Shown one piece after another: positions 14,706-36,322 of a stretch of DNA of 36,322 bases (its first letter is position 1; each line of letters starts with the position of its first letter). The notes below the pieces were generated by a model. It was given only the letters and a program-made list of their open reading frames with translations. It did no database searches and had not been told where the DNA came from. Source of the stretch: a bacterium (GTDB taxonomy: Bacteria > Patescibacteriota > Minisyncoccia > CAYZDR01); NCBI GenBank assembly GCA_043806975.1, contig JAZDGL010000050.1, positions 1 to 36,322 of the forward strand. The letters run 5' to 3'. Position numbers and translations under genes: made by a program.

Positions 14706-15953
14706 CTATAATAGCGGGCAAACATTGATATTGGCGTCTGTTTCCACTTCCCACGGTTTGCGGGTCGCTTCTTGGCGGTGAAAATATCCAGCGACTGCGA
14801 TCATCGCGGCGTTGTCTGTGCAAAATTGCAATGGGGGAACGGAGAATTTTATTTCGGGGAAAGTATTTTTTATTTTTGCGGCAAGTTGAAATCGCAGCTG
14901 GGAATTTGCGGCGACCCCGCCTGCTAAAATGATTGTTTTTGGAGAAAATTTATGCGCCGCCTTAATTGTTTTGGATATCAGCACTTCAACAACAGCTTGC
15001 TGAAATTCTGCGGCGATATTATTGGCTTGTGATGGCTGTAATTCTGCGCCGTTTGCGGTTTTTGCGTCTAATTCTCTTACCGCTGTTTTTATCCCGCTAA
15101 AACTGAAATCAAAATTTTTGCTTGAAATCATAGGGCGAGGAAGGCTGTAAATTCCGGGTGTTCCATTTTCTGCCGCTTTGGAAATTGCGGGACCTCCCGG
15201 GTAGCCTAAATTTAAAAGTCGCGCGGCTTTATCAAAGGCTTCTCCTACGGCGTCGTCGCGGGTCGCTCCAACAGAAATAAACTTTTTATGGTCTTTCATT
15301 AAAACCAATTCAGTATGACCTCCTGACACAACTAAGGCTAGAACTGGGAAGATTATTTCCTTTATTTCTTCTTTTTCGCGTCCTCCGAAGTCTGCTGACG
15401 CAGGAGAGGTAGAATGGCCGGGTATATTTTTAAAATCCCCCTTAGTCCCCCTTCTAAAAGGGGGAAAAATTAAGGATATTCCCTTTAAAAAGAGGGTAGA
15501 TATATTTCTAGGCTCTTCCTTTATTTCCCCCTTTGTAAAGGGGGTAGGGGGATTTTCTATCCAATTTGCGTAAATATGTCCTTCAATATGGTTAACTCCG
15601 ACAATTGGTTTCTCCCAAACATAAGAAAGTGTTTTTGCTGCGCTTGTTCCAACCAAAAGCGCAGGGATCAACCCCGGTCCGCGCGTAACCGTAATTAAAT
15701 CTATATCTTTTATTTTTATTGCAGATTTTTGCAAAGCTTCTTCCAAAACCGAAGTTATGTTTTTTGTATGTTCGCGAGCTGCTAAATTGGGGATTATCCC
15801 TCCAAATTGAGAGTGCAAGCCTACTTGACTAGAAACGATATTTGATAAAATTTCAAAATTAACCGATTCCTCGGGTTCTGTTGTTGTCGTTTCTGCTTTT
15901 AAAACTGCTGCTGCGGTTTCATCGCAAGATGTTTCAATCGCTAGAATTATCAT
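14706..15953 (-). CDS. tsaD: tRNA threonylcarbamoyltransferase TsaD, with a repeat-derived in-frame insertion
   Basis: ILAIETSCDET, HIEGH, VSGGHT, DDAVGEAFDK, FSFSGIKTA, CTDNAAMIA. Confidence 0.97.
   Translation of the reverse strand: MIILAIETSCDETAAAVLKAETTTTEPEESVNFEILSNIVSSQVGLHSQFGGIIPNLAAREHTKNITSVLEEALQKSAIKIKDIDLITVTRGPGLIPALLVGTSAAKTLSYVWEKPIVGVNHIEGHIYANWIENPPTPFTKGEIKEEPRNISTLFLKGISLIFPPFRRGTKGDFKNIPGHSTSPASADFGGREKEEIKEIIFPVLALVVSGGHTELVLMKDHKKFISVGATRDDAVGEAFDKAARLLNLGYPGGPAISKAAENGTPGIYSLPRPMISSKNFDFSFSGIKTAVRELDAKTANGAELQPSQANNIAAEFQQAVVEVLISKTIKAAHKFSPKTIILAGGVAANSQLRFQLAAKIKNTFPEIKFSVPPLQFCTDNAAMIAVAGYFHRQEATRKPWEVETDANINVCPLL
15432..15556. mobile_element. Intragenic palindromic doublet inside tsaD
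   Basis: Perfect 11-bp terminal IR aaaatccccct / agggggatttt. Same end pair as the intergenic 27566-27856 element. Confidence 0.85.
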
Positions 15954-15958
15954 ATTTT

Positions 15959-17215
15959 CTAAAATAAGCTAATATCTGCTCCCAAATTTTTCAGCCGTTC
16001 TACGGTATTTGAATGTCCCCGTTCAATTTGGTAAATGTTGTCTATAATGGTTTCGCCTTCTGCGGCAAGCCCGGCTAAAACATAAGCCATTCCTGCGCGA
16101 AGATCGGGCGCGGAAACAGAGGCTCCGCGCAGTTTATCAACGCCCTCAACCGTTGCCACATTTCCTTGTGCGGTTATTTTTGCCCCAAAAGAGTTTAGCC
16201 CGTCTGCCTGGCTAAATCTGCTTTCATAAACATTCTCACGCAAATAACTGGTTCCATCTGCCAAGGCTGAAAATGCCATCATAGCAGGAAGTAAATCTGT
16301 TGCAAAGCCTGGATATGGCCATGTTACGATGTTTATCGGGCGAGGTCTTTGTTTTAATCCTTTAACCCTTATGGTTTTTCCGTTATTTTCTACTGTTGCT
16401 CCCATTTGCTCCAATTTTATTTTTAAAATTTTCATACAATCAAGATCCGCCCCAATAAGAGTGATGTCTCCTTGCGTCATAGCGGCGCCAATCATAAAAG
16501 TCCCCGCATCCAGCCGATCTGGCAAAACCCGATATTCTACTGGATTTAATTCTGCAACTCCCTCAACTGTAATGGTTTGGGTTCCTGCGCCGTAAATTTT
16601 AGCTCCCATTTGGATTAGCATATTTGCAAAATCTACAATTTCTGGCTCTGACGCGGCATTTTCAATTGTAGTTTTTCCTTTTGCAAGGCTCGCAGCCATA
16701 ATAAGGTTTTCAGTCCCGGTCCAGCTGGGGATATCGGAATAAACCACATTCCCCACCAATTTTTTTGCTGTAATTTTTAATTTATCGTCGCTCTTTATGT
16801 CAACTTTTGCGCCAAGCCGCTTGAATCCATTATAATGAAAATCCAGCTTGCGTCCAAGCGAACATCCTCCCGCTCCATTTATTTCAACTTTTCCGAGCCG
16901 ATGAAGAATGACGGGTAAAAAAAGGATAGAGGCGCGGAGTTTGTTTGAAAGTTCGCTGTCTAAAACGGAATTATTTATTCCTTCTGCATCAATAACTAAA
17001 ATTCTTTTGTCCTCAAAATAAGTCAATTTAGCTCCGATTGATTCAGCTATTTGTATTAAAACTTTGATGTCGTTAAGCGGCGGAACATTTTTTAAAACGG
17101 TTTGTCCTTTTTTCGGCAAAAGAGCCGCCGCAATCATCGGCAGCGCCGCATTTTTAGACCCTTGCACAAATAAAGTCCCTTTTAAGGGCTTCCCTCCGGT
17201 GATTTTGTATCTCAT
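15959..17215 (-). CDS. murA: UDP-N-acetylglucosamine 1-carboxyvinyltransferase
   Basis: [48 protein letters not shown]. Confidence 0.95.
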
Positions 17216-17273
17216 TTTGATTTATGATTAATTATTGCTTAAATTACATTATAGCATAGGTTGAGGAAAAAGC

Positions 17274-17301
17274 AAAAACCCTGACAAACTTTTGTCAGGG
17301 T
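17274..17301 (-). terminator. Intrinsic terminator (minus strand)
   Basis: accctgacaaa..ttgtcagggt hairpin followed by a T-run on the minus strand. Confidence 0.6.
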
Positions 17302-17319
17302 CTAATTTTTATTAGATCA

Positions 17320-17592
17320 TTAGTCGTGTAAGTCGCGCAAACCACATTCTATCATTTCTGCTTCTTCCTCTCTTTCGCATTGCTCTATGCAACTTTCACA
17401 TAGACCGCCTTCGACATTTTTTTTAATTTTTTAGAAATTTCTTTCCAAAGGGGACTACTAGCAATCACGGGAATTTGTTTTTTTGCTTGAACGATTTCTT
17501 CGACTTCCAATGTTGTTACAAACTCATTTTCTGTTAAAAGCTTTCTGCACTTCTTACAATGCGCATTTTTTGGGGATGACTCAACGCTTTTT
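17320..17592 (-). pseudogene. Possible frameshifted small CxxC..CxxC protein
   Basis: HCKKCRKLL... in one frame and GGLCESCIEQC... in another, joined at an A8 run. Terminator downstream. No clear start codon. Confidence 0.3.
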
Positions 17593-17623
17593 TAAAATCA
17601 AGGTTCTTCTTGTAAATTATGTT

Positions 17624-17739
17624 TTAAGGGCGTGTCGCCGAATGCAATTTTTTCAAAATTCTGAAATTTTTTAGGCTTTAATAAACCAAAAAATTTTTCG
17701 AAAATTGCAAAATTTACTATTCGGCGACAGCCCCTTTAA
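17624..17739. mobile_element. MITE-like inverted-repeat element
   Basis: ttaagggcgtgtcgccgaat ... attcggcgacagcccctttaa, plus an internal IR gcaatttt / aaaattgc. Confidence 0.65.
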
Positions 17740-18647
17740 TTTAGATTCTCCATAAAATCAAGGATTTCTTTTTGCACTTTTAGCATTGGAAATTTTTTCC
17801 AAGGGAAAATAGATTTTGAGACAGACATAATTGCGCAAATATAGTGAGCAGAGTTGCTTTTAGCCGAGAAGACATCATTGTGCCAGCGAATTACAGCCCA
17901 GTGTTTTTTAAAAATACTTTTAATGGCAGATTTAAAAGAGTATTTCCAAAGGTTTGTTTCTAGCCATCCTCCTTTCCCGAAAATTTTTTCAAATTGTTGC
18001 TTGTAAAATTTTTCTTCGCATTTTTCAGGTTTTTCCCCGAGCTTTGAAAGCTTTTCGGATACCCAAGGAGAAACCATTTGATTTTTCTCCACTAAGTAGA
18101 AGAACTCTGCCAAATGTTTTGCGCAAGACATAGTTATGTCTGAAAAACGGAATTTTGGATTTTCCTTGTCTCTATTAAGGAATTTTCTCGTTACCTCACT
18201 TCCTTGCCATCCGTATTTATGAATAATATTTTCAGTGATCGCTTCCCTGGAAACTAAATCAATTAGGCAATTTGACGCGGTATTATCCGAACGGGTAAGC
18301 ATAAGGTTTAATAGATATTCAACTGAAACTTTGTCGCCAGTTTTTAAAAGCGGTCTTGAATCATTCGGGAAAATTCGGGAGTCTCTATCAACATCATTCG
18401 GGGATTTAACTGTAATTATGGTAATTAGCGAGAAAGTTTTTTGTTCTATTTGCCTTAATACTTCTGCTCCAATGAAAATTTTATAACAACTTGCTGGATA
18501 AATAAATTTATTTATCTGATAGCCAAAAATCTCGTGTTCTGAAGATGCAAGGTTAATAATGCAAATTGAAAAATCGAATTTTTTCCGATATTTTTTTGCT
18601 ATTTTTTCCATTAACTTTTTTTCTGTGTTTGAATTATATTGAAGCAT
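17736..18647 (-). CDS. Serine hydrolase, class A beta-lactamase-like
   Basis: SxxK (ASCYK), SDN (RSDNTAS), and KGG in place of KTG. No signal peptide. Start may be 18611. Confidence 0.8.
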   Translation of the reverse strand: MLQYNSNTEKKLMEKIAKKYRKKFDFSICIINLASSEHEIFGYQINKFIYPASCYKIFIGAEVLRQIEQKTFSLITIITVKSPNDVDRDSRIFPNDSRPLLKTGDKVSVEYLLNLMLTRSDNTASNCLIDLVSREAITENIIHKYGWQGSEVTRKFLNRDKENPKFRFSDITMSCAKHLAEFFYLVEKNQMVSPWVSEKLSKLGEKPEKCEEKFYKQQFEKIFGKGGWLETNLWKYSFKSAIKSIFKKHWAVIRWHNDVFSAKSNSAHYICAIMSVSKSIFPWKKFPMLKVQKEILDFMENLN

Positions 18648-18793
18648 TAGATTCTCCCCTTGATCTCAAATGAAAAATAAAATTTTGAAATTTATTTTCT
18701 AGAAAGGTTATGGTAATTTGGTAATTAATAATATGCGGCTCGCGGGTTAATAAAAATCCCTGAAACTGCGTTAATAAAAGTTTCAGGGATAAA

Positions 18794-19450
18794 TTACATC
18801 GGTCCGTAAAAAGCCGATGTATGTTTCCCATAAGCTGCCCAAAGGCGGTCTCCATAGGAATAATGCCACCATTCGGCGGGATAGTTTTGAAATCCCGCTT
18901 TGACCATGGCGTTTAAAAGAATATCCCTAAATTCGCATTCCTTTTTTGAAATTGTCCTTGCAAACATTGGAGTTTTTTCCGAAAACTCCTGAACTTTAGT
19001 TCCCAAGAATAGCTCATTTCCGTTTTTATCTCCAAGCGTGACATCAATGGCTCCGCCTGTTTGATGCCCGCCGCCCAGTCCGACAGGTTTTGCGGCGAAT
19101 AGCCTGGCTATTCTTTCTACCTCTTCTTGACCTGCGTCAGGCTCCATTTCTTTGGCCTTTAAAAGCGCTCTATTCCAAAGCTCTTGCTGTCTTTCTCTGC
19201 TTCGAAAACCTTCCACAAAAATTAAAGTGAATTCCGCGGGAAGATTGTTTGAAACTTCTTTGAGCATTCCATAAACCTTTTCACGGCACCGATAATCCTT
19301 TGTAGCGTATCGTGCGATTCTCAGTTTTTCCGTTTCCACAATTTCAACTAATGTTTCGCCGTTATCTTGGATGGGTATCGCATTTATCTTATTGCGCGGC
19401 AATACACCTCGCAATTCCAAAAACCTGACACATTTTTCTTTAACTTGCAT
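18794..19450 (-). CDS. D-alanyl-D-alanine dipeptidase, M15 (VanX/DdpX-like)
   Basis: EGFRSRERQ, HQTGGAIDVTL, EWWHYSYGD. Confidence 0.88.
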   Translation of the reverse strand: MQVKEKCVRFLELRGVLPRNKINAIPIQDNGETLVEIVETEKLRIARYATKDYRCREKVYGMLKEVSNNLPAEFTLIFVEGFRSRERQQELWNRALLKAKEMEPDAGQEEVERIARLFAAKPVGLGGGHQTGGAIDVTLGDKNGNELFLGTKVQEFSEKTPMFARTISKKECEFRDILLNAMVKAGFQNYPAEWWHYSYGDRLWAAYGKHTSAFYGPM

Positions 19451-19479
19451 AAGAAATTTAATATTAAAAGAGTTAATTG

Positions 19480-20043
19480 TTATTCGCCTCCTTTCATAAT
19501 ACTACCATTGCTTCGATACATGTCAATTGTGTATTCCATCTGGATTTCATCAACTCGATTACCAAGCTCAAATCGCGATTTCTTAAATCTTCCGCATTCG
19601 CGGAATCCTAATTTTTGGTACAACTTTATCGCCTTTTTATTCGCCTCCGAAACGGACAAATGAATGGCAAATAAATCGCACTCTTCAAAAGCCCAAGAAA
19701 TCATAAGTTTTGAAGCCAGGAAAGCATGACCGGCTCTTTGAAATTGAGGCTCTGCCACGGCAATCCGAAAAATTCCGATCCTATGTCTTTTACGGATAAA
19801 TAAACCCGTGTAGCCGATTGGTTCCCACGAATCTTTTTCTTTCGCAACAACTATCCAGCTATCCTTTTTATGGCTTTCCGCGTAAGAGACAGAATCCGAC
19901 TGAGTAAATGGAAACGGATCGATGTCTCCCATAAAAAGGTAGATTTGTTCGTTGTTCATCCATTTAAAAATAAGCTGGTTTGTATCACTTGCAAATGGCG
20001 CGAGTCCAGTGTTCTTGAAGATTAATCTAGGGGTATACAGCAT
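19480..20043 (-). CDS. GNAT N-acetyltransferase, RimJ/RimL/SpeG-like
   Basis: ATG at 20043 after AAGGAG. FQRAGHA, NKKAIKLYQKLGF. Confidence 0.82.
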   Translation of the reverse strand: MLYTPRLIFKNTGLAPFASDTNQLIFKWMNNEQIYLFMGDIDPFPFTQSDSVSYAESHKKDSWIVVAKEKDSWEPIGYTGLFIRKRHRIGIFRIAVAEPQFQRAGHAFLASKLMISWAFEECDLFAIHLSVSEANKKAIKLYQKLGFRECGRFKKSRFELGNRVDEIQMEYTIDMYRSNGSIMKGGE

Positions 20044-20196
20044 TTTTTTCTCCTTCTTGTGATTATTAAAGCAACAAAACAAAATTACCTCCTAAGTAAT
20101 TTAAAAATAGCATATTTTTCTATTTTGTCAACCAAAAACGTCTTGTTAAGTATTGGAATCGTTTATTCCTGAGTGAACTTGTCTCAATTTTTCAAC

Positions 20197-20224
20197 ATAA
20201 AACTTATTTTAAAATAAGTTTTAT
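20197..20224. promoter_or_regulatory. Perfect 28-bp AT-rich palindrome in a divergent intergenic region
   Basis: ataaaacttattttaaaataagttttat equals its own reverse complement. Confidence 0.4.
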
Positions 20225-20395
20225 TAGGTTTGCGTGGGGGATTTGTCAGAAAAATGTCTAAAATAATACATTTTTGGGTGAATTCAAGGTATTTACTCAA
20301 ATAATAATTTATGTTAAGATGAGTTGATATTTTTTAAGCAAAAAGGAGGGGTTAGCGATTTAAGGGAGGATGGGAGGCTAGAATTTTTTGTTTTT

Positions 20396-21814
20396 ATGAT
20401 AAAAAAGCAGACGAAGATTATTGCGACGATTTCAGATTTAAAATGCGAACTAGAATTTTTAAAAGAGTTATACGAAAACGGGATGGATGCGGTGCGGCTT
20501 AATACGGCGCATCAAACACCCGAGGATACTTTAAAAATAATTGAAAATGTGCGAAAGGTTTCTGATCGGATTGCGATTATCGTTGATATTAAGGGTCCGG
20601 AAATTAGGACGACAAAATTGGAAGAGCCGCTATTTTTGCAAAAAGGCGATTTGATTAAAATTTCAGGAGGAACTCGGGATAGCGTTTCTTCTAGGGATAC
20701 GGTCTATGTAAATTATTCGGATTTTGTTAAAGATGTCGCGCAGGGGGCGAGAATTTTGATTGACGATGGAAAATTGGAGTTAGAAGCGATTGAAAAAAAT
20801 GATGAGTATTTGCTTTGCCGAGCGCTTGGAAACGGAGAAATCAAGGGGCGCAAGGGCGTGAATACTCCGGGAACGCATATTAATTTGCCATCTTTAAGCG
20901 AAAAAGACAAAGAATATGTTTTGTTTTCAATTGAACATAATGTTGATTTTATCGCGCATTCTTTCGTTAGAAATAAAAAAGATGTGATGGCGGTGCAGGA
21001 AATTTTAGATGGGCATAAGAGCCCGATAAAAATAATCGCTAAAATAGAAAATCAGGAGGGCGTGGAAAACATTGATGAGATTTTGGATTCGGCGTATGCG
21101 ATTATGGTAGCGCGCGGCGATATGGCAGTTGAGATTTCTGCTGAAAAGGTGCCTTTGATTCAGAAAAAACTGATCAAAAAGTGTCTTGCGCGAAATAAAA
21201 CGGTTATTACGGCGACGCAAATACTACAAAGTATGGTGAAGAATTGCTGGCCGACAAGAGCGGAAATTAGCGATATTGCCAATGCTGTTTTGGATGGGAC
21301 TGACGCTTTGATGCTTTCGGATGAAACAACGCAGGGAGAATATCCTGTGGATGCGGTGAGGATTATGGCAAAAGTTGCGCGGTATGCGGAGGGAGAAAAG
21401 GTGCTTTGCGAACATTCTACGGATGATTCGGATGGAGGAGATAATAAAATAGCGGATTGTCTTGCTGGGTCGGCAGCGCTGGCGGCGAAGGAATTGGGAG
21501 CGAAGGGGATTATTGTCAGCACAAAAAGCGGCTATTCTGCGGAGTTGATTTCTTCTTTTCGCGGCAATGTCCCGATTATTTTAAAATGTTTTGATAAGAA
21601 AAAAGTTCGCGAGTTTGCTTTGGTTTCCGGCGTGAATGCGCAATATATTGATCCCGAGGCGAAAATAGATAATTTGGTCGGGTATGTATTGGCGGATCTT
21701 GTTAAAGAAGGTGTTTTTTTCAAGGAAGATCTTGTAATTTTCCTTTCCAGCGACTTAAAAGAACCTGTCACTACAAATATTTTGGAGGTTTGCAGAGTAG
21801 GGAGGTATGTGTAG
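20396..21814 (+). CDS. pyk: Pyruvate kinase
   Basis: TKIIATI, RLNTAH, DIKGPEIRT, IIAKIEN, MVARGD, TRAEISDIANAVLDG. ATG 20396 preferred over the track start. Confidence 0.96.
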   Translation: MIKKQTKIIATISDLKCELEFLKELYENGMDAVRLNTAHQTPEDTLKIIENVRKVSDRIAIIVDIKGPEIRTTKLEEPLFLQKGDLIKISGGTRDSVSSRDTVYVNYSDFVKDVAQGARILIDDGKLELEAIEKNDEYLLCRALGNGEIKGRKGVNTPGTHINLPSLSEKDKEYVLFSIEHNVDFIAHSFVRNKKDVMAVQEILDGHKSPIKIIAKIENQEGVENIDEILDSAYAIMVARGDMAVEISAEKVPLIQKKLIKKCLARNKTVITATQILQSMVKNCWPTRAEISDIANAVLDGTDALMLSDETTQGEYPVDAVRIMAKVARYAEGEKVLCEHSTDDSDGGDNKIADCLAGSAALAAKELGAKGIIVSTKSGYSAELISSFRGNVPIILKCFDKKKVREFALVSGVNAQYIDPEAKIDNLVGYVLADLVKEGVFFKEDLVIFLSSDLKEPVTTNILEVCRVGRYV

Positions 21815-21836
21815 AAGTTCGCGCAAGGATTTTTTA

Positions 21837-21865
21837 TTGACCAATTGGATATTTTTGTGTATTAT
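21837..21865 (+). promoter_or_regulatory. Putative sigma70 promoter for the tRNA cluster
   Basis: TTGACC-17 bp-TATTAT (overlapping TATAAT), about 48 bp upstream of tRNA-Lys. Confidence 0.55.
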
Positions 21866-21912
21866 AATTTTGTTAGTAAAACTAGCATTGTTTCGTTGTT
21901 TGTCAGTGTATT

Positions 21913-21985
21913 GCGCGCATAGCTCAGTCGGCAGAGCAACAGCCTTTTAAGCTGATGGTCGAGGGTTCAATTCCCCCTGCGCGCA
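21913..21985 (+). tRNA. tRNA-Lys(UUU)
   Basis: Acceptor gcgcgca/tgcgcgc, D-arm agctcagtcggcagagc, anticodon loop cTTTtaa read as ct-TTT-aa, T-loop ttcaatt. CCA not encoded. Confidence 0.92.
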
Positions 21986-21999
21986 CAATTTTTGTCAAA

Positions 22000-22132
22000 G
22001 AGCGAAGCGATTTGCAACAAAAATTAGTGCCCCGTCTCGCTAGATGATGGGGCAGAGGGAAGCATTTTTTTGGCTAATTGGAAACTTTACAATTTATTGA
22101 TAAAATGCGTTGAGCGAAGCGATTTGCAACAA
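22000..22132 (+). repeat. 21-bp direct repeat gagcgaagcgatttgcaacaa
   Basis: Exact copies at 22000-22020 and 22112-22132. Confidence 0.8.
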
Positions 22133-22156
22133 TTGAAGCGATGTTTAGGAAATCAC

Positions 22157-22188
22157 ACCTCCCCTTACCCCTCCTCCGAAAGGAGGGG
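22157..22188 (+). repeat. C-tail + hairpin unit
   Basis: acctccccttacccctcctccgaaaggagggg. Confidence 0.7.
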
Positions 22189-22211
22189 CGCAAAGACTTT
22201 AAAATAATTTT

Positions 22212-22286
22212 GGCCCCATCGTCTAGTGGTTAGGACATCAGGTTTTCATCCTGGAAACCGGGGTTCAATTCCCCGTGGGGCTACCA
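22212..22286 (+). tRNA. tRNA-Glu(UUC)
   Basis: ggccccatcgtctagtggttaggac, anticodon loop tt-TTC-at, ggttcaattcc, encoded CCA. Confidence 0.95.
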
Positions 22287-22292
22287 ATAATT

Positions 22293-22325
22293 TCCCCCTT
22301 TAAAAAGGGGGATTAAGGGGGTTTT
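22293..22325 (-). repeat. C-tail + hairpin unit (reverse orientation)
   Basis: tccccctttaaaaagggggattaagggggtttt. Confidence 0.8.
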
Positions 22326-22349
22326 TAAATAAGTTAATAGGAAAAATTT

Positions 22350-22661
22350 ATGAAAAAATCAGGGTTAATTTTAAAAAGTTTTTTGTGTTCAATAGGATTG
22401 GTTGGTTATATTATGTTGGTGTCAGCAATTTTGAATAATGCTGAAAAATGGTTTGGTTCGGTTAATAAATTTTGGGGTCCTGTCGCGATGCTATTGTTAT
22501 TCGTTTTTTCTGCGCTAATTTCAGGGATGCTGGTGCTTGGTTATCCGATATGGTTATATTTGGAACAAAAGAAAAAAGAGGCTATCTCAATGCTTGGTTA
22601 TAATGTAGGGTGGATTTTTGTTATTTTGGTTGTTGCTTTCGTAGTATTGGGAATTTTCTAA
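22350..22661 (+). CDS. Small membrane protein (about 3 TM), unknown function
   Basis: Hydrophobic 103-aa ORF with host-like codon usage. Confidence 0.75.
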   Translation: MKKSGLILKSFLCSIGLVGYIMLVSAILNNAEKWFGSVNKFWGPVAMLLLFVFSALISGMLVLGYPIWLYLEQKKKEAISMLGYNVGWIFVILVVAFVVLGIF

Positions 22662-22664
22662 TCA

Positions 22665-22716
22665 CTTCTCCTTTTTACCTCCCAAGGCGGTCTGCCTTGG
22701 GTAGAAGATGGATTTT
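22665..22716 (-). repeat. Partial MITE core with CCCAAGGC palindrome
   Basis: cctcccaaggcggtctgccttgggtagaaga, identical to the copy at 12129-12159. Confidence 0.8.
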
Positions 22717-22760
22717 TTATAGTTGTTCATTCGATCATTGAAAATTGATCATTGAATTAC

Positions 22761-22833
22761 GCGCTCATAGCTCAATCGGCAGAGCAGGGGCCTCTTAAGC
22801 CCAAGGTTGGGGGTTCAATTCCCTCTGGGCGCA
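22761..22833 (+). tRNA. tRNA-Lys(CUU)
   Basis: gcgctcatagctcaatcggcagagc, anticodon loop ct-CTT-aa, ggttcaattcc. CCA not encoded. Confidence 0.92.
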
Positions 22834-22866
22834 CAGACTAGTTTTAATGTTATGAAGCAAATAAAA

Positions 22867-27906: not shown

Positions 27907-27913
27907 AGGATTA

Positions 27914-28615: not shown

Positions 28616-28805
28616 TGTATTTTCTCCTTTTCTGCCATATTGAATTGACAAATAGCTTAACTTAAACAGACTTTACAACATTTCAATAATATAGTAAAAT
28701 AAGAATAACAGTTTAAGAGAAATTTAATAAAATTGCTGATATTAAAGCTAAAATTGGCAATTAAACTGTTGTAATCTTATTACTACTAAAATTAAGATTT
28801 TAACA

Positions 28806-28832
28806 CAGGTTGGGAGATTTTCCACCCCTACA
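28806..28832 (-). repeat. Degenerate GTAG-type REP
   Basis: Minus strand reads tgtaggggtggaaaatctcccaacctg. Confidence 0.5.
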
Positions 28833-28843
28833 AGGGTAAATTT

Positions 28844-29635
28844 ATGAATCCATCTATAAAACTTAAACCGATTTTAACTCAACTGGGGTTGAATGATATT
28901 GAAATCCGAGCGTATTTGGCGGCTTTGGAGTTTGGACCGGCGCCGGCGAGCGAATTGGCAAGACAGGCAGGATTGAATAGGATCACTGTTTATGAGGCAT
29001 TGAAGCGGCTTTCTCAGAAAGGCATAGTAAAGATTCGCGCAAAAAAGGGAAATGAGGTAAAATATTTTACAGCTGAGGATGTCGGCATTTTGAAAGAGAA
29101 GGCAAGACAGAAAAAAGCGGATTTGGATGGATTAATTGAAAAAATCACGGTTTTGGAGCCGCAATTGCGCGCACTAGCTTCTTTTAGCGAGAAAAAGCCG
29201 GAAGTATATTTTTATGAGGGCAAAGAGGGAATTAGAAATGTGTTGTTGGACACAATCAAACAAAATCCAAAAGAATCATTAGGCTTTGCTTCAGCGGATT
29301 TTTTGGAAGTCGGTTTTGATAAAAAGTTTTTAGAAGATTATTGGAAAAAGCGTGTTGTAATGAAGATTCCGGCGCGGGGAATTATGCCGAAAACTAAAGC
29401 TGCGCTGGCGCTTTTTACTCCGGAAAGAAATCAATCGGAAATTAGACAGGTAAAATTTATTCCGGCAGAAAATTATCCTTTTGAAGATGAAATTGAAATT
29501 TACGGCGATAATATCGGGATTATTTCAATGAAAAAGGGGAATGAGCACGGGGTGATTATCAGAAGCAAAAGTATTGCGGATAGTTTCAGAGCGATTTTTG
29601 AATTGGTTTGGAATCAATATAATTTGGTAGTGTAG
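28844..29635 (+). CDS. TrmB-family transcriptional regulator
   Basis: LGLNDIEIRAYLAALE..ASELARQAGLNRITVYEALKRL HTH, VYFYEGKEGI, IADSFRAIFELVW. Confidence 0.9.
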   Translation: MNPSIKLKPILTQLGLNDIEIRAYLAALEFGPAPASELARQAGLNRITVYEALKRLSQKGIVKIRAKKGNEVKYFTAEDVGILKEKARQKKADLDGLIEKITVLEPQLRALASFSEKKPEVYFYEGKEGIRNVLLDTIKQNPKESLGFASADFLEVGFDKKFLEDYWKKRVVMKIPARGIMPKTKAALALFTPERNQSEIRQVKFIPAENYPFEDEIEIYGDNIGIISMKKGNEHGVIIRSKSIADSFRAIFELVWNQYNLVV

Positions 29636-29778
29636 GGGCGGACATGAGTGTCCGCCCAGGTCGGGGCGTTAATTATTTTTTGAAGATGTAATTTTGAGCG
29701 TAGAGAAGAATGTTCAAAATATATCTTAATTTCGGTTTATCTCTACACTTAGGGCAGACACATAGGTCTGCCCCTACA
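29631..29778. repeat. Inverted GTAG REP doublet (REPIN-like)
   Basis: tGTAGgggcggacatgagtgtccgccc ... gggcagacacataggtctgcccCTACa. Confidence 0.82.
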
Positions 29779-29797
29779 AGACAATGAATGGCAACAT

Positions 29798-31804
29798 ATG
29801 TTTAAACTGAAATCACAATTTGCGCCGAGCGGCGATCAGCCGAAGGCGATTGAAGAGCTGGTAAAGGGGCTGGAATCCGGGATGGATTTTCAGACGCTTT
29901 TAGGCGTGACGGGATCAGGGAAAACATTTACGATGGCGAATGTGATTCAGCGGGTTCAAAAGCCGACCTTGATTATCGCGCACAATAAAACGCTTGCGGC
30001 ACAGCTAGCAAGCGAGTTTAGGCAGTTTTTCCCGGAAAATGCGGTGGAGTATTTTGTGTCTTACTATGATTATTATCAGCCAGAAGCGTATTTGCCGTCA
30101 TCCGATACCTATATAGAAAAGGAATCTCAAATAAACGAAGAGATTGATCGTTTGCGGCACGCGGCGACTGCGGCAGTGATGAGCAGGCGCGATGTTATTA
30201 TCGTTGCGTCGGTTTCGTGTATTTACGGCTTGGGCTCGCCTGAATTTTATAAAGATATAACTTTGCAGATTGAAAAAGGCGAAAAAGTTAATCGTGAACA
30301 AATTGCGCGCCAGCTTACAAAAATGCATTATACGCGAAGTGAAGTTTTGGAGCGTGCGCGATTTCGCATTCACGGGCCGATTTTAGAAATTGTCCCGCCG
30401 GATAAAGAAATCGTGTGGCGAGTTGAATTAGGAGAAGGGGATGTTGTTGAGGAGATCTCGCAGAGAGATTTATTCGCAACCCCCTCCGACTCCCCCTTGC
30501 CAAAGGGGAGAGAAAGAGGGGATGCGCAGGGCAGGAGCGATTTGGATAAAATTATTATCTATCCCGCCAAGCATTTTATTGTTCCAGAGCCTGTAATGGG
30601 CGGAGCGATTAAGGAAATAAAAAAGGAATTGGCGCAAAGACTAAAACAATTTGAAAAAGAGGGGAAGCTTTTGGAGGTGGAACGGTTGGAACGGAGGACG
30701 AATTATGATACTGAAATGATGAAAGAAATCGGCTATTGCAATGGGATTGAAAATTATTCCCGATATTTAACTAACCGCAAGCCGGGCGAACCGCCTTTCA
30801 CTTTGCTGGACTATTTTCCAAAAGATTTTTTGACGATAATTGACGAATCGCATGTTACAGTTTCGCAAGTCGGGGCGATGTTTGAAGGAGATAAATCTCG
30901 TAAAAAAGCCTTAATTGAACACGGGTTCCGTCTGCCGTCCGCAGCAGATAACCGCCCGCTTAAATTTAATGAATTTGAAGAGCGGATCGGGCAGGTGATT
31001 TTTACTTCTGCGACTCCGGCTAAATATGAGCGCGAAAATTCCCGCCAAACGGTGGAACAAATTATTCGTCCGACAGGTTTGGTTGATCCTGAGGTTATTT
31101 TGAAACCGCTTAAAAATCAAGTTTCCGATGTGATTGAAGAAATAAAAAAGCGCGCGGATAAAGATGAGCGCGTGCTAGTGACGACTTTGACTAAAAAAAT
31201 GGCGGAACAGTTAAGCGAATATCTTGTGGAGGCGGGAGTGAAATCTAAATATCTGCATAGCGAAGTGGATACGCTAGATAGGATCCGTATTTTAAAAGAG
31301 TTGCGGCAGGGCAAATTTGATTGTCTTGTTGGGGTGAATTTACTCCGCGAAGGGTTAGATTTGCCGGAAGTTTCTTTGGTGGCAATTTTGGATGCGGATA
31401 AAGAAGGATTTTTGAGGAGTGAAACTTCTTTGATCCAAACAATTGGTCGCGCGGCGCGAAATATAAGCGGAAAAGTGATTTTGTATGCGGATAATATCAC
31501 GGGATCAATGCGCAGGGCGTTAGATGAAACTGATCGCCGTCGTGAAATTCAGATCGAGCATAATAAAAAGCATAACATTACGCCGCAGTCTATTAAAAAA
31601 TCTATAGAATCTATTATTGATTATGAAATTAGTCAGGAAAAACCGTTAGCGGAATTTGTAAAGCTGGAAAGCATTGAGGATTTGCCGAAATATATTAAAC
31701 AGCGGGAGCGCGAAATGAAACTGCTTGCCAAAGCGCTGGATTTTGAAGGTGCGGCATTGATTAGAGACGAGATAAATCAACTGAGAAAAATAAAAAGCGG
31801 CTAA
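29798..31804 (+). CDS. uvrB: Excinuclease ABC subunit B
   Basis: GVTGSGKT, YYDYYQPEAY, IDESH, NLLREGLDLPEV, QTIGRAARN. Confidence 0.98.
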   Translation: MFKLKSQFAPSGDQPKAIEELVKGLESGMDFQTLLGVTGSGKTFTMANVIQRVQKPTLIIAHNKTLAAQLASEFRQFFPENAVEYFVSYYDYYQPEAYLPSSDTYIEKESQINEEIDRLRHAATAAVMSRRDVIIVASVSCIYGLGSPEFYKDITLQIEKGEKVNREQIARQLTKMHYTRSEVLERARFRIHGPILEIVPPDKEIVWRVELGEGDVVEEISQRDLFATPSDSPLPKGRERGDAQGRSDLDKIIIYPAKHFIVPEPVMGGAIKEIKKELAQRLKQFEKEGKLLEVERLERRTNYDTEMMKEIGYCNGIENYSRYLTNRKPGEPPFTLLDYFPKDFLTIIDESHVTVSQVGAMFEGDKSRKKALIEHGFRLPSAADNRPLKFNEFEERIGQVIFTSATPAKYERENSRQTVEQIIRPTGLVDPEVILKPLKNQVSDVIEEIKKRADKDERVLVTTLTKKMAEQLSEYLVEAGVKSKYLHSEVDTLDRIRILKELRQGKFDCLVGVNLLREGLDLPEVSLVAILDADKEGFLRSETSLIQTIGRAARNISGKVILYADNITGSMRRALDETDRRREIQIEHNKKHNITPQSIKKSIESIIDYEISQEKPLAEFVKLESIEDLPKYIKQREREMKLLAKALDFEGAALIRDEINQLRKIKSG

Positions 31805-31822
31805 TTATGAGCCGCTTTTTTT
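31793..31822 (+). terminator. Intrinsic terminator, probably bidirectional
   Basis: aaaagcggct-aattatg-agccgcttttttt. Confidence 0.75.
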
Positions 31823-31857
31823 GTGGGCCTGTAAGTCCACAAATTATTTAATCCAAT

Positions 31858-32049
31858 CTACTCCTCCTTTTCTTCGACAGTTTTCCAAATTTTGGAATTA
31901 GAGAAGAGCCAAAAACTGAGCGTCAAGTGGAAAAAAATTGAAAAAATATTTTTTTCCATTCCCAGCGCGCGAATGAAAAAAGCCATACTTAAAAAAAATA
32001 GTATGGAGTGAACGCAGAAAAAAACAGCTTTATCAAAAATTTTTTTCAT
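31858..32049 (-). CDS. Small 2-TM membrane protein
   Basis: AAGGAGG Shine-Dalgarno before the ATG, two hydrophobic stretches. Confidence 0.65.
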   Translation of the reverse strand: MKKIFDKAVFFCVHSILFFLSMAFFIRALGMEKNIFSIFFHLTLSFWLFSNSKIWKTVEEKEE

Positions 32050-32085
32050 TCTGTCCTCCTTATTCCACTATATTACCTGGACATA

Positions 32086-32268
32086 TTATTTCCTAACTAA
32101 TCTCAAAACCATCGCTAGAATAAGAGAAAAAAGTGTGAAAAAAATTACCCAGTAGAAACAGAGCAGAAAAAAGTTATCGTTTGATAAATAAAAACTAAAA
32201 ACACTCGCGATCAAACCGAATGTTACTCCTGATATTATTCCTGTTGTGAAATCGCCCAAAAAGCGCAT
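32086..32268 (-). CDS. Small 2-TM membrane protein
   Basis: GGAGGG SD, start 1 nt after the upstream stop, hydrophobic. Confidence 0.65.
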   Translation of the reverse strand: MRFLGDFTTGIISGVTFGLIASVFSFYLSNDNFFLLCFYWVIFFTLFSLILAMVLRLVRK

Positions 32269-32269
32269 T

Positions 32270-32470
32270 TTATTCCCCTCCCAAAACCTTTAAAAGATGC
32301 ATTATCACGAAACTAATCGTGATAATGCATAATAAAATAGTATGGACAAGGTTATTTACATTGATGTTAAGCAAGATTATTGACATCAATGCGAAGGAAG
32401 AAACTCCAATGGAAAAAATTAAAAAAAATGTTAAATTTTCTTTGATATTTCGTCTATTTCGTTCTTTCAT
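32270..32470 (-). CDS. Small 2-TM membrane protein
   Basis: ATG at 32470 after AGGAGG, basic N-terminus, two hydrophobic stretches. Confidence 0.65.
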   Translation of the reverse strand: MKERNRRNIKENLTFFLIFSIGVSSFALMSIILLNINVNNLVHTILLCIITISFVIMHLLKVLGGE

Positions 32471-32544
32471 TTTTTTCCCCTCCTGTGAATTTTTAAATAA
32501 CATCAGCATTAAATCAGTATCAATAAGACTGCAATAGCATATTT

Positions 32545-33408
32545 TTAGCAAAGAGGAGCGATTGACTTTAATCCTTCTAGCACCCCTTCTATCTCTTTGC
32601 CTTGGGCAAAGTATATACTATTTAAATTCATTTGTCTAGCCTTTGTCTTTATTTCTTCTCTTGCGTTTCCGACTAAAATTGAAGGAATCCCGCTCGCAAA
32701 AACATCTAAGTCGTTGCCTTCATCGCCAGCAAAAACGACAGAAATTTCTTCCATCTTTTGGGAAGAAGGGTTGGGGGAGGAGTCGCTCTTTCTCTCCCCC
32801 TTTATAAGGGGGAGTTGGAGGGGGTGTTCCAGCAGATATTCAATCCCTGCCAATTTAGAGATATTGTCCGCTAATATCTCTAAAATCCCCGTTTTCCCTT
32901 TTAAATCTTGGCTGTAAATTATTTTAATTTCTTTGATGCCGTTTTTTTCTAATAATTTTCGCGCTTCTTTTGTAATTTTTCCAGAATCTATTTTTAAATC
33001 CACATAAAACCCGGCTTTAAATTGGTGTTGTTTTGAATCTTCTTGAATTTTTAAATCTTTTGATTGAGATAAAATACTAATAATTTTTTCTTTATTAAAA
33101 TCTGAATTGCTGGCGGATATTTTTTGACGGTATTTTTTGTCTTCTTCCCATTTTTTGCCATTGCGGCGATAAAGTGCCGCGCCATTAAAGGGGATTAAAA
33201 AATCAGGCATCGGCAAAAGGTATTTTTCAATCGCTTCACAAGCCATTTGAAAAGTCCTGCCGGTAGGGTAGCATAAAATAAATTGCGGATTTTCTTCCAG
33301 CAATTTTCCGAATTTTTTAATGCCGTCAAAATTTGGTGTTTCAGTGGAATTTGGGATAAGCGTGCCGTCTATATCAATGGCGAGGAGAATTTTATTTTTT
33401 GTTTTCAT
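32545..33408 (-). CDS. HAD-IIB hydrolase (sucrose-phosphatase/Cof-like), with repeat insertion
   Basis: DIDGTL, TGR, SK, FAGDEGND, VGNA. The track's longer start runs through a repeat. Confidence 0.88.
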   Translation of the reverse strand: MKTKNKILLAIDIDGTLIPNSTETPNFDGIKKFGKLLEENPQFILCYPTGRTFQMACEAIEKYLLPMPDFLIPFNGAALYRRNGKKWEEDKKYRQKISASNSDFNKEKIISILSQSKDLKIQEDSKQHQFKAGFYVDLKIDSGKITKEARKLLEKNGIKEIKIIYSQDLKGKTGILEILADNISKLAGIEYLLEHPLQLPLIKGERKSDSSPNPSSQKMEEISVVFAGDEGNDLDVFASGIPSILVGNAREEIKTKARQMNLNSIYFAQGKEIEGVLEGLKSIAPLC

Positions 33409-33516
33409 TAAAAATATAATAGCAGTAAAAAAACATTGAAGCAAGAAATGAGAGACTATAAAGAAGATTAATGTGTGCAATGTCTGCGCAAAAGATTGTA
33501 ATTGCTCATTGTTTTT

Positions 33517-33678
33517 TGTCATCCCGACCGAGCTCCGCCTGTATTCAGGTGGAGGCGAGCGGAGGGATCCCTTAAATAATATGTACAAGATTTTAATTTT
33601 TTAGCAAAAATCATTAAAGAGACTCCTCCGCTCGTAATTTCTGCTTTGCTAACAGAAATTACTTCGGTCGGAGTGACA
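33517..33678. repeat. TGTCA..TGACA long inverted-repeat element
   Basis: tgtcatcccgaccgag..cgagcggaggga pairs with ctcctccgctcg..ttcggtcggagtgaca. Confidence 0.85.
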
Positions 33679-33799
33679 ATAAAAAAAGGTAGTGAGCAGT
33701 TACAAAAGCCTTAAATTCTATTCCAAAGCTTAAGTTGCGCATTGCGCCATTTTATTGTATATTTACTAAATAAATCCGAAGGAATATCGCGGCAAAATT

Positions 33800-36322
33800 A
33801 TGGAGAAATTAGATAAAAAAATCGTTGTTCATGGAGCGCGGGAGCATAATCTCAAAAATGTTCATTTGGAAATTCCAAAGGACAAATTTATTGTGTTCAC
33901 GGGAGTTTCGGGCAGCGGGAAATCTTCCCTCGCTTTTGATACTATTTTTGCAGAAGGGCAGCGGCGCTATCTTGAAAGTTTATCGGCTTATGCGCGGCAA
34001 TTTTTAACGCAGATGGAAAAGCCCGATGTTGATTATATTGAAGGGCTTTCTCCAGCTATCTCAATAGACCAAAAATCGGCATCGCGAAATCCGCGATCAA
34101 CAGTGGGAACCGTAACGGAGGTTCACGATTATTTGCGGTTGCTTTTTGCCCGCGTTGGAACGCCATATTGTCCGCAGTGCGGCGAAGAAATTAAAAAAAT
34201 CACAATAGATGAGATTATTGATAAAATTTTAACTGATTTTGAAGGGAAGAAAATTGAAATTTTTGCTCCGATTGTGCGGGGAAGAAAAGGGGAATATCTA
34301 GCGCTTTTAAATGATATGTATAAAAGGGGATTTAGCCGGGCAATTGTGGACGGGGAAGAAGTTGACTTGCGAAGCGCGGGAACACACCCCCTCTTAACCT
34401 CCCCCTCCGGAAGGGAGAGGCAAGGAGAGAGTATTCCCTCTGGCAGGGGGAGAGATAAAACCCCTCCCGATCTCTCCTTAAAAGGGGAGAAGGCAGACGA
34501 TAAATATAAAAAGCACGATATAGACATTTTTATTGATTCTGTTGAAGTGAATGCGGATAATATTGGGCGGGCGAATGAATCAATAGAATTGGCGCTTAAA
34601 ATAGCCGATGGTTTAGTAAAAATAAAATGCGGAAAAGCGGATAAAGGCAAAGGCAAAAAAAGCGAGAATAAAAGCGAAGAGCTGATTTTTAATCAGAAAC
34701 TCACTTGTCCGCGGTGCGGAATTGCTTTTGAAGAAATAGAACCGCGGCTTTTTTCTTTCAATAGTCCGTTTGGAGCATGCCCCGATTGCAACGGGCTTGG
34801 GAGCAAGAAAAACATTGATTTAAATTTGGTGATGCCCGATAAAAATAAAACCATTCAAGAAGGCGGTTTTTTGCCTTGGACATATAAAATTAATAATTAT
34901 TATGGAAATTTAATCAAGCAAGTTTCGCAACAATACAGAATTCCGCTTAATACGAGGATAAAAGACATCCCGAAAGAAAAAATTGATATTTTGCTTTATG
35001 GATCGCCTGATGGAGAAGAGCTGTTAAAAGTGAAATATATTGTTCAGGGCAAGACATTTTATCATAATATCAAGTTTGACGGGCTTATTCCTCATTTAGA
35101 GGAGCGCTATCGTAAAACTGATTCTGATGCTGTTCGCAAGGAAATTGAAAAATATATTTCAGATAGTCCGTGTCCTGCTTGCGAAGGGGCAAGGCTTAAA
35201 AAAGAAGCCTTGCTGGTGCGGGTTGGCGGTAAAAATATCGGAGAGGTGAACCGAATGTCTGTGAATCGGGCGCGGGATTTTTTTCTTAAATTAAATTTAA
35301 CTGAACGGCAGAAGTTGATTTCGCGCAGAATTTTTAAGGAAATTGAAAATAGGCTTAAATTTTTGGAGGATGTGGGGTTAGGATATTTAACGCTTGAAAG
35401 GGCGGCGATGACTTTGGCGGGAGGAGAGGCGCAGAGAATTCGCTTGGCATCACAGCTGGGTTCGTCTTTGACGGGAGTTCTATATATTTTAGACGAGCCA
35501 TCTATCGGGCTTCATCAAAGAGACAACGGGAGGCTTTTGGACACTTTGGAGAAATTAAGGGATTTGGGGAATACAGTGATTGCGGTTGAACACGATGAGG
35601 AAACAATGCGGCGAGCCGATTGGGTGGTGGATATAGGTCCTGGCGCAGGAAAACACGGAGGGAAAATTGTCGCGTCAGGTTCGGTCAAGGAGGTGATTGA
35701 AACAGAGGGATCTTTAACGGGGCAATATCTTTCTGGAAAAGAAAAAATTGAAATTCCTGAAAGGCGCCGTCCATTGCGAAATAAAATGATTGTTGTGAAG
35801 GGAGCGCGGGAACATAATTTGAAAAATATTACAGCGGGTTTTCCAGTCGGGCTTTTTACTTGCGTTACGGGTGTTTCTGGAAGTGGAAAATCATCTTTGG
35901 TGAATGATATTTTGTATAAAGCGCTGGCGCGCCAAGTTGGGCATTCTTTGGAAAAGCCGGGGCAATTTTCAAGCATTAGCGGGTTTGAGAATTTGGACAA
36001 GGCGATTATAGTGGATCAGTCTCCAATCGGGCGCACTCCCCGCAGTAATCCAGCGACATATACGGGATTTTTTACGGACATTAGGGAAATTTTTGCAATG
36101 GTTCCTGAGGCGAAAGCGAAAGGATATTTGCCGGGGCGATTTAGTTTTAATGTTGCTGGCGGAAGGTGCGAGAATTGCAATGGCGATGGATTTTTGCAGG
36201 TGGAGATGCAATTTTTGCCCGATGTTTATATTCCATGCGATGTGTGCAGCGGAAAGCGGTATAATGCCGAAACTCTTAAAATTTGCTATAAAGGTAAAAA
36301 CATCGCTGACATCTTGAATATG
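33800..36322 (+). CDS. uvrA: Excinuclease ABC subunit A (3'-truncated, absent from the ORF track)
   Basis: GAREHNLKN, GVSGSGKSSLAFDTIFAEGQRRY, Zn fingers, LAGGEAQRIRLA, LDEPSIGLH, second Walker A. Frame is consistent to the window end. Confidence 0.98.
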   Translation, partial: MEKLDKKIVVHGAREHNLKNVHLEIPKDKFIVFTGVSGSGKSSLAFDTIFAEGQRRYLESLSAYARQFLTQMEKPDVDYIEGLSPAISIDQKSASRNPRSTVGTVTEVHDYLRLLFARVGTPYCPQCGEEIKKITIDEIIDKILTDFEGKKIEIFAPIVRGRKGEYLALLNDMYKRGFSRAIVDGEEVDLRSAGTHPLLTSPSGRERQGESIPSGRGRDKTPPDLSLKGEKADDKYKKHDIDIFIDSVEVNADNIGRANESIELALKIADGLVKIKCGKADKGKGKKSENKSEELIFNQKLTCPRCGIAFEEIEPRLFSFNSPFGACPDCNGLGSKKNIDLNLVMPDKNKTIQEGGFLPWTYKINNYYGNLIKQVSQQYRIPLNTRIKDIPKEKIDILLYGSPDGEELLKVKYIVQGKTFYHNIKFDGLIPHLEERYRKTDSDAVRKEIEKYISDSPCPACEGARLKKEALLVRVGGKNIGEVNRMSVNRARDFFLKLNLTERQKLISRRIFKEIENRLKFLEDVGLGYLTLERAAMTLAGGEAQRIRLASQLGSSLTGVLYILDEPSIGLHQRDNGRLLDTLEKLRDLGNTVIAVEHDEETMRRADWVVDIGPGAGKHGGKIVASGSVKEVIETEGSLTGQYLSGKEKIEIPERRRPLRNKMIVVKGAREHNLKNITAGFPVGLFTCVTGVSGSGKSSLVNDILYKALARQVGHSLEKPGQFSSISGFENLDKAIIVDQSPIGRTPRSNPATYTGFFTDIREIFAMVPEAKAKGYLPGRFSFNVAGGRCENCNGDGFLQVEMQFLPDVYIPCDVCSGKRYNAETLKICYKGKNIADILNM

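Follow-up and report, generated by a model that had tools for sequence, protein, structure and literature searches.

Short hairpin-forming repeats between and inside conserved genes of a small Patescibacteria genome

Results and Discussion

Repeat units at the locus

The DNA studied here is contig JAZDGL010000050.1 with its whole length of 36,322 nucleotides (nt), called the window below, which is contig C50 of a Patescibacteriota genome (G000) of 670,500 bp in 75 contigs with 37% G+C and a completeness of 87% according to marker genes. A short palindromic repeat lies between genes of the window and also inside four of them, namely tsaD, uvrB, uvrA and a gene for a HAD/S6PP hydrolase. A first-pass annotation, made from the letters alone, had as its main point that repeat DNA adds new loops to conserved proteins, and this is supported by our data, as the sites are empty or filled by shorter, unrelated loops in relatives and composite copies in unrelated genes share 77–86% DNA identity. 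It had also assigned the DNA to a probable genome of the Candidate Phyla Radiation (CPR), which agrees with a CPR-like genome of 670 kb; the closest named homologues of the UvrA and UvrB of the window come from Moranbacteria and Parcubacteria.

The palindromic core CCCCCTT-N(1–20)-AAGGGGG matches ten times in the window, some matches being nested, which leaves eight distinct sites. Dinucleotide shuffles (n = 100) gave on average 0.01 matches, and none of them reached ten. The host genes and units are given below; scores refer to a general 43-nt profile unless a subfamily profile is named.

14706..15953, minus strand: host gene tsaD, 415 amino acids (aa), PF00814 with E 9.5e-87, matching solved TsaD structures
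15354..15560, minus strand: tsaD insert of ~198 nt (66 aa), consisting of two inverted units, spacer and tail
15521..15557, minus strand: tsaD unit, sense to the gene, peptide ENPPTPFTKGEIK, 29.7 bits
15431..15470, plus strand: tsaD unit, antisense to the gene, read as IFPPFRRGTKGDFK, 30.6 bits
29798..31804, plus strand: host gene uvrB, 668 aa, E 4e-253 to a solved UvrB structure
30478..30515, plus strand: uvrB unit, peptide ATPSDSPLPKGRER, 23.4 bits (32.0 with the subfamily profile)
32545..33588, minus strand: host gene of the HAD/S6PP hydrolase, PF05116 with E 6.8e-39 over residues 66–341
32790..32828, minus strand: HAD unit, peptide EHPLQLPLIKGERK, 36.7 bits (48.8 with the subfamily profile)
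33800..36322, plus strand: host gene uvrA, continuing past the window end, homologues named UvrA
34385..34418, plus strand: degenerate uvrA unit, HPLLTSPSGRE, 18.5 bits with the subfamily profile (maximum in the reversed genome 11.4)
34459..34490, plus strand: marginal uvrA unit, TPPDLSLKGE, 11.6 bits with the subfamily profile, E 0.13, about the control maximum
5083..5121, plus strand: intergenic unit, variant with a CTCCC stem, 17.6 bits
7613..7651, plus strand: intergenic unit, 42.8 bits
22288..22327, minus strand: intergenic unit, 5 nt past a tRNA gene ending at 22283, 42.3 bits
22895..22929, plus strand: intergenic unit, 28.4 bits
27564..27601, plus strand: unit beginning at the final base of the open reading frame (ORF) 26731–27564, 23.1 bits
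27819..27856, minus strand: intergenic unit, 38.3 bits

All four host ORFs are intact and contain the peptides that had been read from them, and the gene identities hold as well, for TsaD and UvrB through solved structures, for TsaD and HAD/S6PP through Pfam and for UvrA through its homologues. Six intergenic positions had been named, of which five carry the unit; the sixth, at 22157, is a different hairpin with a CCCCTCC/GGAGGGG stem and scores below 9 bits. The six intragenic peptides fared unequally: four lie on clear units (two in TsaD, one each in UvrB and HAD), the first one in UvrA is recovered with the subfamily profile only and the second one is marginal.

An Rfam scan at gathering score gave three tRNAs in the window (21913–21985, 22212–22283 and 22761–22833) and no family matching the repeat units. 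Two of the three tRNA genes are 83% alike, and repeat units are found directly 3' of them or between them. A separate repeat of 59 nt with a hairpin of its own occurs at 12050–12108 and 33512–33570 of the window with 92% identity. As its second copy falls into the 5' extension of the HAD ORF call, the true start of this gene is probably located downstream of the listed TTG.

Copy number and subfamilies

In the complete set of contigs the core (C5TT, loop, AAG5) was found in 103 copies. None is present in any of three genomes from the same family (0, 0 and 0), and 37 further genomes of the class have 0–4. Nearly all copies show a further C-run 1–8 nt 5' of the stem, appearing on the opposite strand as a G-run downstream, so that the unit is asymmetric and can be oriented, as was possible for 95 of the 103 copies. 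From these 95 oriented copies we built a 43-nt nhmmer profile, to be used with a threshold of at least 15 bits. Scanning the genome with such a profile had been proposed as a check in the first-pass annotation; the scan resulted in 241 raw matches and 147 non-overlapping units of at least 15 bits with a total of 5,515 nt, compared to no match of at least 15 bits in the reversed genome, where the maximum was 13.3 bits.

In the basic unit of ~36–43 nt, a C-rich box is joined by a short linker to a stem-loop with a C5TT/AAG5 stem of 7 bp. That the repeats are related by this hairpin stands, but they do not make up the single family that had been assumed: at least three subfamilies and a composite of ~135–200 nt can be told apart, sorted by eye and backed by further sequence comparisons. 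Subfamily I is long and intergenic, its unit being framed by inverted ends of ~22 nt, and an 11-nt motif from these ends occurs 102 times versus 8 times in the control. Subfamily II has a GA-extended, longer right arm and is found in HAD, UvrB and several other genes as well as in degenerate form in UvrA. Subfamily III is the composite, in which two inverted units are combined with a ~55-nt spacer and a tail to ~135–200 nt in total.

Two further hairpin families with the same upstream A4-T-C3 box were observed, one with a CTCCC stem (CTCCCTT...AAGGGAG) in 37 copies and one with a CCCAAGG stem (CCCAAGG...CCTTGGG) in 35 copies, corresponding to pattern counts of 74 and 70 over both strands. They are often chained with G5 units inside one spacer, with window examples at 2462–2511, 12121–12170 and 22670–22719.

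Placement in the genome

A simple ORF-based gene call gave 622 ORFs covering 86% of the bases. Of the 147 units 102 are intergenic, 38 are inside ORF calls and seven are at ORF edges; part of the 38 are in ORFs of 80–99 aa, which are probably not genes. Units are thus sparse in ORFs despite the high ORF coverage, a depletion as purifying selection would give it. At least 20 codons away from either end we found 29 units in 18 ORFs of at least 250 aa, and Pfam gave an identity for every one of these ORFs: TrmD, a GH1 glycosidase, an FtsJ-type methyltransferase, a MiaB-like radical SAM protein, CTP synthase, TGT, a GT4 glycosyltransferase, BacA/UppP (whose sole match of 15.1 bits is doubtful), RecG, PriA, KsgA, TsaD, UvrB, the HAD/S6PP hydrolase, HsdM, a radical SAM protein, AlaRS and PrmC. 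Together with UvrA and with QueC, where a unit is located two codons from the gene end, about 20 genes act as hosts, roughly 3% of the ORF calls. The high density claimed for the window, four genes in 36 kb, was therefore rather understated, as it is part of a genome-wide pattern. Inside genes 16 units are sense and 13 antisense to the host gene. Their median profile score is 27.1 bits versus 37.6 bits for intergenic units (Mann–Whitney p = 3e-4), indicating that the intragenic copies are older, differently selected or members of other subfamilies.

Between genes, units occur in 15 of 41 convergent, 57 of 417 tandem and eight of 41 divergent spacers. Of the 72 units in tandem spacers, 55 are oriented such that their G-rich strand coincides with the coding strand (55:17). 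Spacer length confounds this placement, the median being 227 nt for spacers with a unit and 81 nt overall. Such an intergenic placement resembles the one given for repetitive extragenic palindromic sequences (REPs) in PMC3733652 and would allow for an RNA-level role. In a simple terminator scan of 14500–34400 only three unit sites were flagged, and a T run usually follows the second G box and not the stem. We also considered the ends of the long intergenic subfamily as promoters and discarded this idea, as by eye their spacing is unlike sigma-70 and both orientations occur at both spacer sides; a promoter scan showed no enrichment (58 matches versus 50.7 ± 7.5).

Empty sites in relatives

Ten host genes were compared with the closest available relatives, and in all ten the relatives lack the segment or have a shorter, unrelated loop; loops of the same length, which according to the first-pass annotation would have refuted its reading, were not found. 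For TsaD, three orthologs of the same family (63–66% identical, ORFs of 343–352 aa) join the flanks directly where G000 has 66 additional residues, and solved TsaD structures align to query positions 2–136 and 203–411, which are adjacent in their chain. In UvrB, 13 residues (PSDSPLPKGRERG) are missing from an 80%-identical ortholog and from ten others, and solved UvrBs have the same gap at the unit site; the reference is an ortholog from the protein database, as our query found no UvrB in the three same-family genomes. The unit-bearing region of UvrA is ~25–35 residues longer than in the nearest homologues, which have a shorter, unrelated sequence there (hit P0124 with 1251 aa, a duplicated or fused form, was left out as reference). 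HAD has segments of 12 and 9 aa that are missing from three relatives. Relatives of KsgA lack ~50 aa and those of AlaRS ~62 aa, and for TGT the loop of the relatives is ~11 aa shorter and unrelated. According to adjacent match coordinates, relatives lack ~53–68 aa of RecG, ~27 aa of CTP synthase and two stretches of TrmD, one of ~31 aa where the unit lies and another of ~51 aa elsewhere. Target-site duplications were not seen at the three sites that were checked by eye.

Other CPR lineages have loops of a different kind at the TsaD and TGT loci (L048, L008, L016, L025, L018, L014 and L010), where tandem repeats of a heptanucleotide, ~4 x 7 nt, are read in frame and give peptides such as FQFPISNFQ and SKFKIQNSK at several loop sites, a separate, microsatellite-like route. 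UvrBs of other Moranbacteria (P0010, P0012 and P0029) also contain their own inserts elsewhere, for example a 42-column insert after a YE(x)xxS motif, which suggests that the phenomenon recurs with other repeats.

DNA identity, reading frame and predicted fold of the inserts

The TsaD composite shows 86% DNA identity over 136 nt to the GT4 gene, 82% over 118 nt to the recG gene (75% over 84 nt for the tail) and 77% over 132 nt to the ksgA gene, and the four composites can be aligned column by column. In RecG the interval from the stem to the second G box contains a nested 28-nt hairpin of the CCCAAGG family; as this arrangement recurs elsewhere in the genome it may be a sub-variant and not a separate event. 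The first-pass annotation would also have been refuted by intragenic copies that match no better than shuffled sequence; they reach 15–39 bits compared to at most 13.3 bits in the reversed genome. Folded as single-stranded DNA, the composite gives a single long hairpin of -31.5 kcal/mol, versus -19.9 ± 2.7 kcal/mol for shuffled sequences (z -4.26), with none of 200 shuffles being as stable.

Sense copies are mostly read as N-P-P-x-x-P-F-x-K-G-E or H-P-L-Q-L-P-L-x-K-G-E and antisense copies as F-P-P-F-x-x-G-x-K-G-D-F. The right arm is read in one phase in 14 of the 16 sense copies, as counted on the peptides, and in the composite the reading frame is forced, since both remaining frames on this strand are closed by stops. 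The 29 intragenic units of the long ORFs are all in frame and free of stops, which is partly by construction because the set was defined as copies found inside ORFs; for the 102 intergenic copies 55% of the unit-by-frame combinations are stop-free.

For TsaD, an AlphaFold model based on 30 aligned sequences has a mean predicted local distance difference test score (pLDDT) of 85.3, with 320 of 415 residues at 90 or above. Residues 135–197 have a pLDDT below 50 and no secondary structure and are placed between a helix (122–131) and a strand (204–209). The model thus predicts a disordered loop on an intact fold, which fits a tolerated surface excursion and is no proof of function.

The motif in other phyla

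The exact three-part pattern C5T, 1–7 nt, C5TT, loop, AAG5 was found in at least 118 stretches of a species-genome collection, many of them from filamentous cyanobacteria. The matches listed also include Desulfobacterota, Nitrospirota, Omnitrophota, proteobacteria, Bacteroidota and Patescibacteria, and they often share the same A/T-rich lead-in and linker. Counted over whole genomes the pattern occurs 132 times in a Nostoc record (L288; 8.4 Mb), 78 times in Iodobacter (4.7 Mb), 77 times in Geomesophilobacter (L122; 6.0 Mb) and 21 and 15 times in two more, while the reversed pattern gave zero matches in all five. Many of the copies in the Nostoc record are inverted doublets ~52 nt apart. Within the phylum 29 of 400 sampled genomes have at least one match and five have 14–32. 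G000 with 74 three-part matches, ~110 per Mb, is by far the densest. As the design is both widespread and patchy, G000 represents a burst and not an invention.

Candidate mobilising enzymes

According to the first-pass annotation a mobilising enzyme would be encoded elsewhere, and a nuclease or transposase gene flanked by repeat copies might reveal it. No such gene was identified in G000. The genome encodes three diverged Y1_Tnp (PF01797) proteins of 176–193 aa, Y1 HUH or RAYT-like, and these are no more than candidates; their genes, located at C37:18557–19138, C7:3593–4123 and C67:1261–1833, are unlinked to the repeat. Their best NCBIfam match is REP_Tyr_transpos (REP-associated tyrosine transposase, RAYT) with 50–53 bits versus a cut-off of 80. 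In the printed sequences each of them has an H-x-H motif and a later tyrosine, which would be the motifs typical of Y1 HUH proteins. That one of the three mobilises the units is conceivable, although we consider it rather doubtful.

The genomic neighbourhood of Y1 genes was also inspected in other motif-rich genomes. All five Patescibacteria genomes tested have Y1 genes and none of them has flanking units. Among three motif-rich genomes of other phyla a unit lies within 1.5 kb of one of 12 Y1 loci, this being the single Y1 gene of the Nostoc record with a unit 390 nt upstream, and none of the 11 loci in the other two. Between this upstream unit and the Y1 gene there is an array of ~24-nt tandem repeats, and the 3' end of the gene abuts an inverted C box. 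A tblastn search with the three Y1 proteins found no relative in the 118 listed motif-bearing stretches of other genomes, nor in 80 metagenome UvrB loci, the latter being a control set only.

Multi-copy transposase-like ORFs were not found in G000. Near-identical ORF pairs were considered as transposases and rejected, as they represent a hydrolase, a deformylase, a PriA_C match that is weak and below threshold, an ORF lacking any Pfam match and a small GIY-YIG protein. The last of these exists as two 99-aa ORFs with 77% identity on contig C68 (9599–9898 and 19008–19307).

Comparison with known repeat systems

Rickettsia palindromic elements (RPEs) are palindromic, ~100–150 bp long and inserted in frame in many unrelated housekeeping genes of a reduced genome, and they encode a conserved peptide that the fold of the host protein is considered to tolerate (Ogata et al. 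2000, 2002, cited in PMC10969869). The G000 repeats are alike in being palindromic, in frame in conserved ORFs and, in ten of ten genes compared, missing from the orthologs or replaced there by a shorter, unrelated loop, and also in the length of the composite in TsaD, RecG, GT4 and KsgA (~135–200 nt) and the disordered surface loop predicted for TsaD. The comparison was made on descriptions and on the terminal tag. They differ from RPEs by the phylum, by single 36–43-nt units that also insert alone and by a higher density with at least 18 host genes in 0.67 Mb. Moreover, RPE-4 and RPE-6 end in CGTC according to PMC3733652, whereas neither CGTC nor GACG is present at the hairpin foot of any of 114 units.

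REPs, bacterial interspersed mosaic elements (BIMEs) and REPINs are similar as well. REPs are short palindromes of 20–40 nt, high in copy number and mostly extragenic, as are our units (102 of 147 being intergenic), and both are placed mostly between convergent and unidirectional ORFs. The inverted doublets in TsaD, KsgA, GT4 and RecG fold as one long hairpin like REPINs, and in both systems some copies are in frame inside genes including uvrA, uvrB and a tRNA synthetase gene: for GTAG- and CGTC-tagged REPs PMC3733652 describes singles, dimers and clusters encoding 20–82 aa inside uvrA, uvrB, recB, dnaE, a tRNA synthetase gene and others. Unlike REPs the G000 units have no tag, as among the 114 units with a recognisable hairpin GTAG is found in two, CTAC in seven and CGTC in none. 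They also have an extra C-rich box 5' of the hairpin, they do not flank any RAYT gene, and their consensus is shared across phyla.

[quoted passage not shown] In-frame fusions have been described for several MITEs (PMC10969869). MITEs differ by their target-site duplications, which we did not see at the three sites checked by eye, and by a cognate transposase, for which neither DDE_3, OrfB_IS605 nor multi-copy ORFs were found in G000; in addition the intragenic units are devoid of the ~22-nt inverted ends. Thus the kind of event is known from RPEs and in-gene REPs, and new are the lineage and the unusually high density. In our literature search neither this family nor in-frame repeats in CPR bacteria turned up, which does not prove that no report exists; the intragenic-REP lists in the supplements of PMC3733652, which may name further hosts, were outside its coverage.

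Interpretation and alternatives

Taken together the feature is probably a family of short, non-coding repeats of the REP, REPIN or RPE kind that form hairpins and were amplified in this lineage. Copies would have been inserted throughout the small CPR genome, mostly between genes, presumably by a transposition-like process acting on single-stranded hairpin DNA, and two inverted units with a spacer would give rise to the composite of ~135–200 nt that may form one long hairpin. In-gene copies would survive only if their length keeps the frame, if this frame is stop-free and if the site is a tolerant loop. The survivors are then presumably translated, as nearly neutral, Pro/Gly/Lys-rich and probably disordered loops on otherwise intact housekeeping proteins. 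The element may be a selfish one that depends on an enzyme encoded elsewhere, as the first-pass annotation had proposed.

Several observations weigh against this explanation. No REPtron was found, as none of the three G000 Y1 genes has units directly next to it and the nearest unit is ~500 nt away past another gene. Of 41 genomes of the class, 21 carry Y1 genes irrespective of the motif count, two sister genomes with zero copies among them. No IS630-type DDE (DDE_3) or TnpB (OrfB_IS605) gene was found in G000, which is 87% complete. Furthermore, the motif is multi-copy in distant phyla, which a purely lineage-specific selfish burst does not explain, and the absence of stops in the 29 intragenic copies is, as mentioned, partly a matter of how they were chosen. 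Neither a transposition event nor a target-site duplication nor a presence/absence polymorphism was seen. Comparing contigs from three public DNA runs over 14700–34600 at 80% likeness gave only short pieces of low depth with repeat-to-repeat joints, too fragmentary to tell about alleles or excision.

The strongest alternative is that the unit primarily serves as a signal in RNA or DNA, for instance as a hairpin that acts like a terminator or stabilises transcripts, or as a site bound by a conserved protein; selection for this function would have spread it, with the intragenic copies as by-products. The orientation bias of 55:17 in tandem spacers, the enrichment in convergent spacers (15 of 41 versus 57 of 417 tandem ones) and the unit only 5 nt past a tRNA gene are in favour of it, and so is the ~30-nt design being multi-copy in cyanobacteria, proteobacteria, Geomesophilobacter, Omnitrophota and several Patescibacteria families. 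Yet three genomes of the same family with the same gene set have zero copies, so that the function would be dispensable, and the terminator scan flagged just three unit sites in 20 kb. Both orientations occur inside essential genes (16 sense and 13 antisense), composites and nested copies resemble insertions, and REPs with the same placement biases are held to be mobile (PMC3733652). We therefore regard a primary signal function as unlikely; it does not exclude mobility in any case.

Much less probable still is that the intragenic copies are not translated, because they are excised from the mRNA or because the ribosome bypasses them. Precedents for bypassing are the short hairpin 'byp' elements of yeast mitochondria and the gap in gene 60 of phage T4, and strong GC hairpins in an AT-rich genome (37% GC) would be in line with it. 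Against this, all 29 intragenic units are in frame and stop-free compared to 55% of the intergenic unit-by-frame combinations, and the common right-arm phase in 14 of 16 sense copies is expected if the peptide matters. With 36–200 nt the copies are also too small for group I or group II introns, and Rfam gave no match.

That the loops are long-standing features of the proteins in single lineages, or products of low-complexity drift, with a coincidental likeness in DNA would find some backing in the own loops of other CPR lineages at the same TsaD and TGT sites, but we regard it as extremely improbable given 77–86% DNA identity over 118–136 nt among four unrelated genes, the 102 intergenic copies matched by the same profile and sister genomes that have neither loops nor motif. 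Equally remote is an assembly artefact with repeats collapsed or mis-joined by the metagenome assembler, for although the genome is in 75 contigs and for 11 of the 147 units a contig end is found within 300 nt, each insert is flanked in frame by both halves of one conserved gene, which a mis-join would not yield.

Going beyond the amplification of a hairpin repeat in this one lineage, the repeats of Nostoc, Iodobacter, Geomesophilobacter, Methylobacter, Omnitrophota and scattered Patescibacteria families might belong to one untagged, REP-like superfamily across phyla. The shared ~30-nt consensus would then point to a conserved trans-acting enzyme, perhaps of a Y1 HUH clade, and bursts could be a main source of new core-protein loops in ultra-small CPR genomes, here in ~3% of the genes. 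We put this forward as a speculative possibility, with more doubt than confidence.

Conclusion

The presence of the motif in distant phyla raises a testable question, namely which enzyme recognises it. For G000 the repeats mean that about 20 core proteins of tRNA modification, DNA repair, replication restart and translation are decorated in a genome of less than 1 Mb, which is also a warning for the annotation and structure prediction of CPR proteins. Proteins of CPR bacteria and Patescibacteria are known for odd insertions whose source has rarely been shown, and here the source is visible at the DNA level, as a natural experiment on how well essential enzymes tolerate extra loops.

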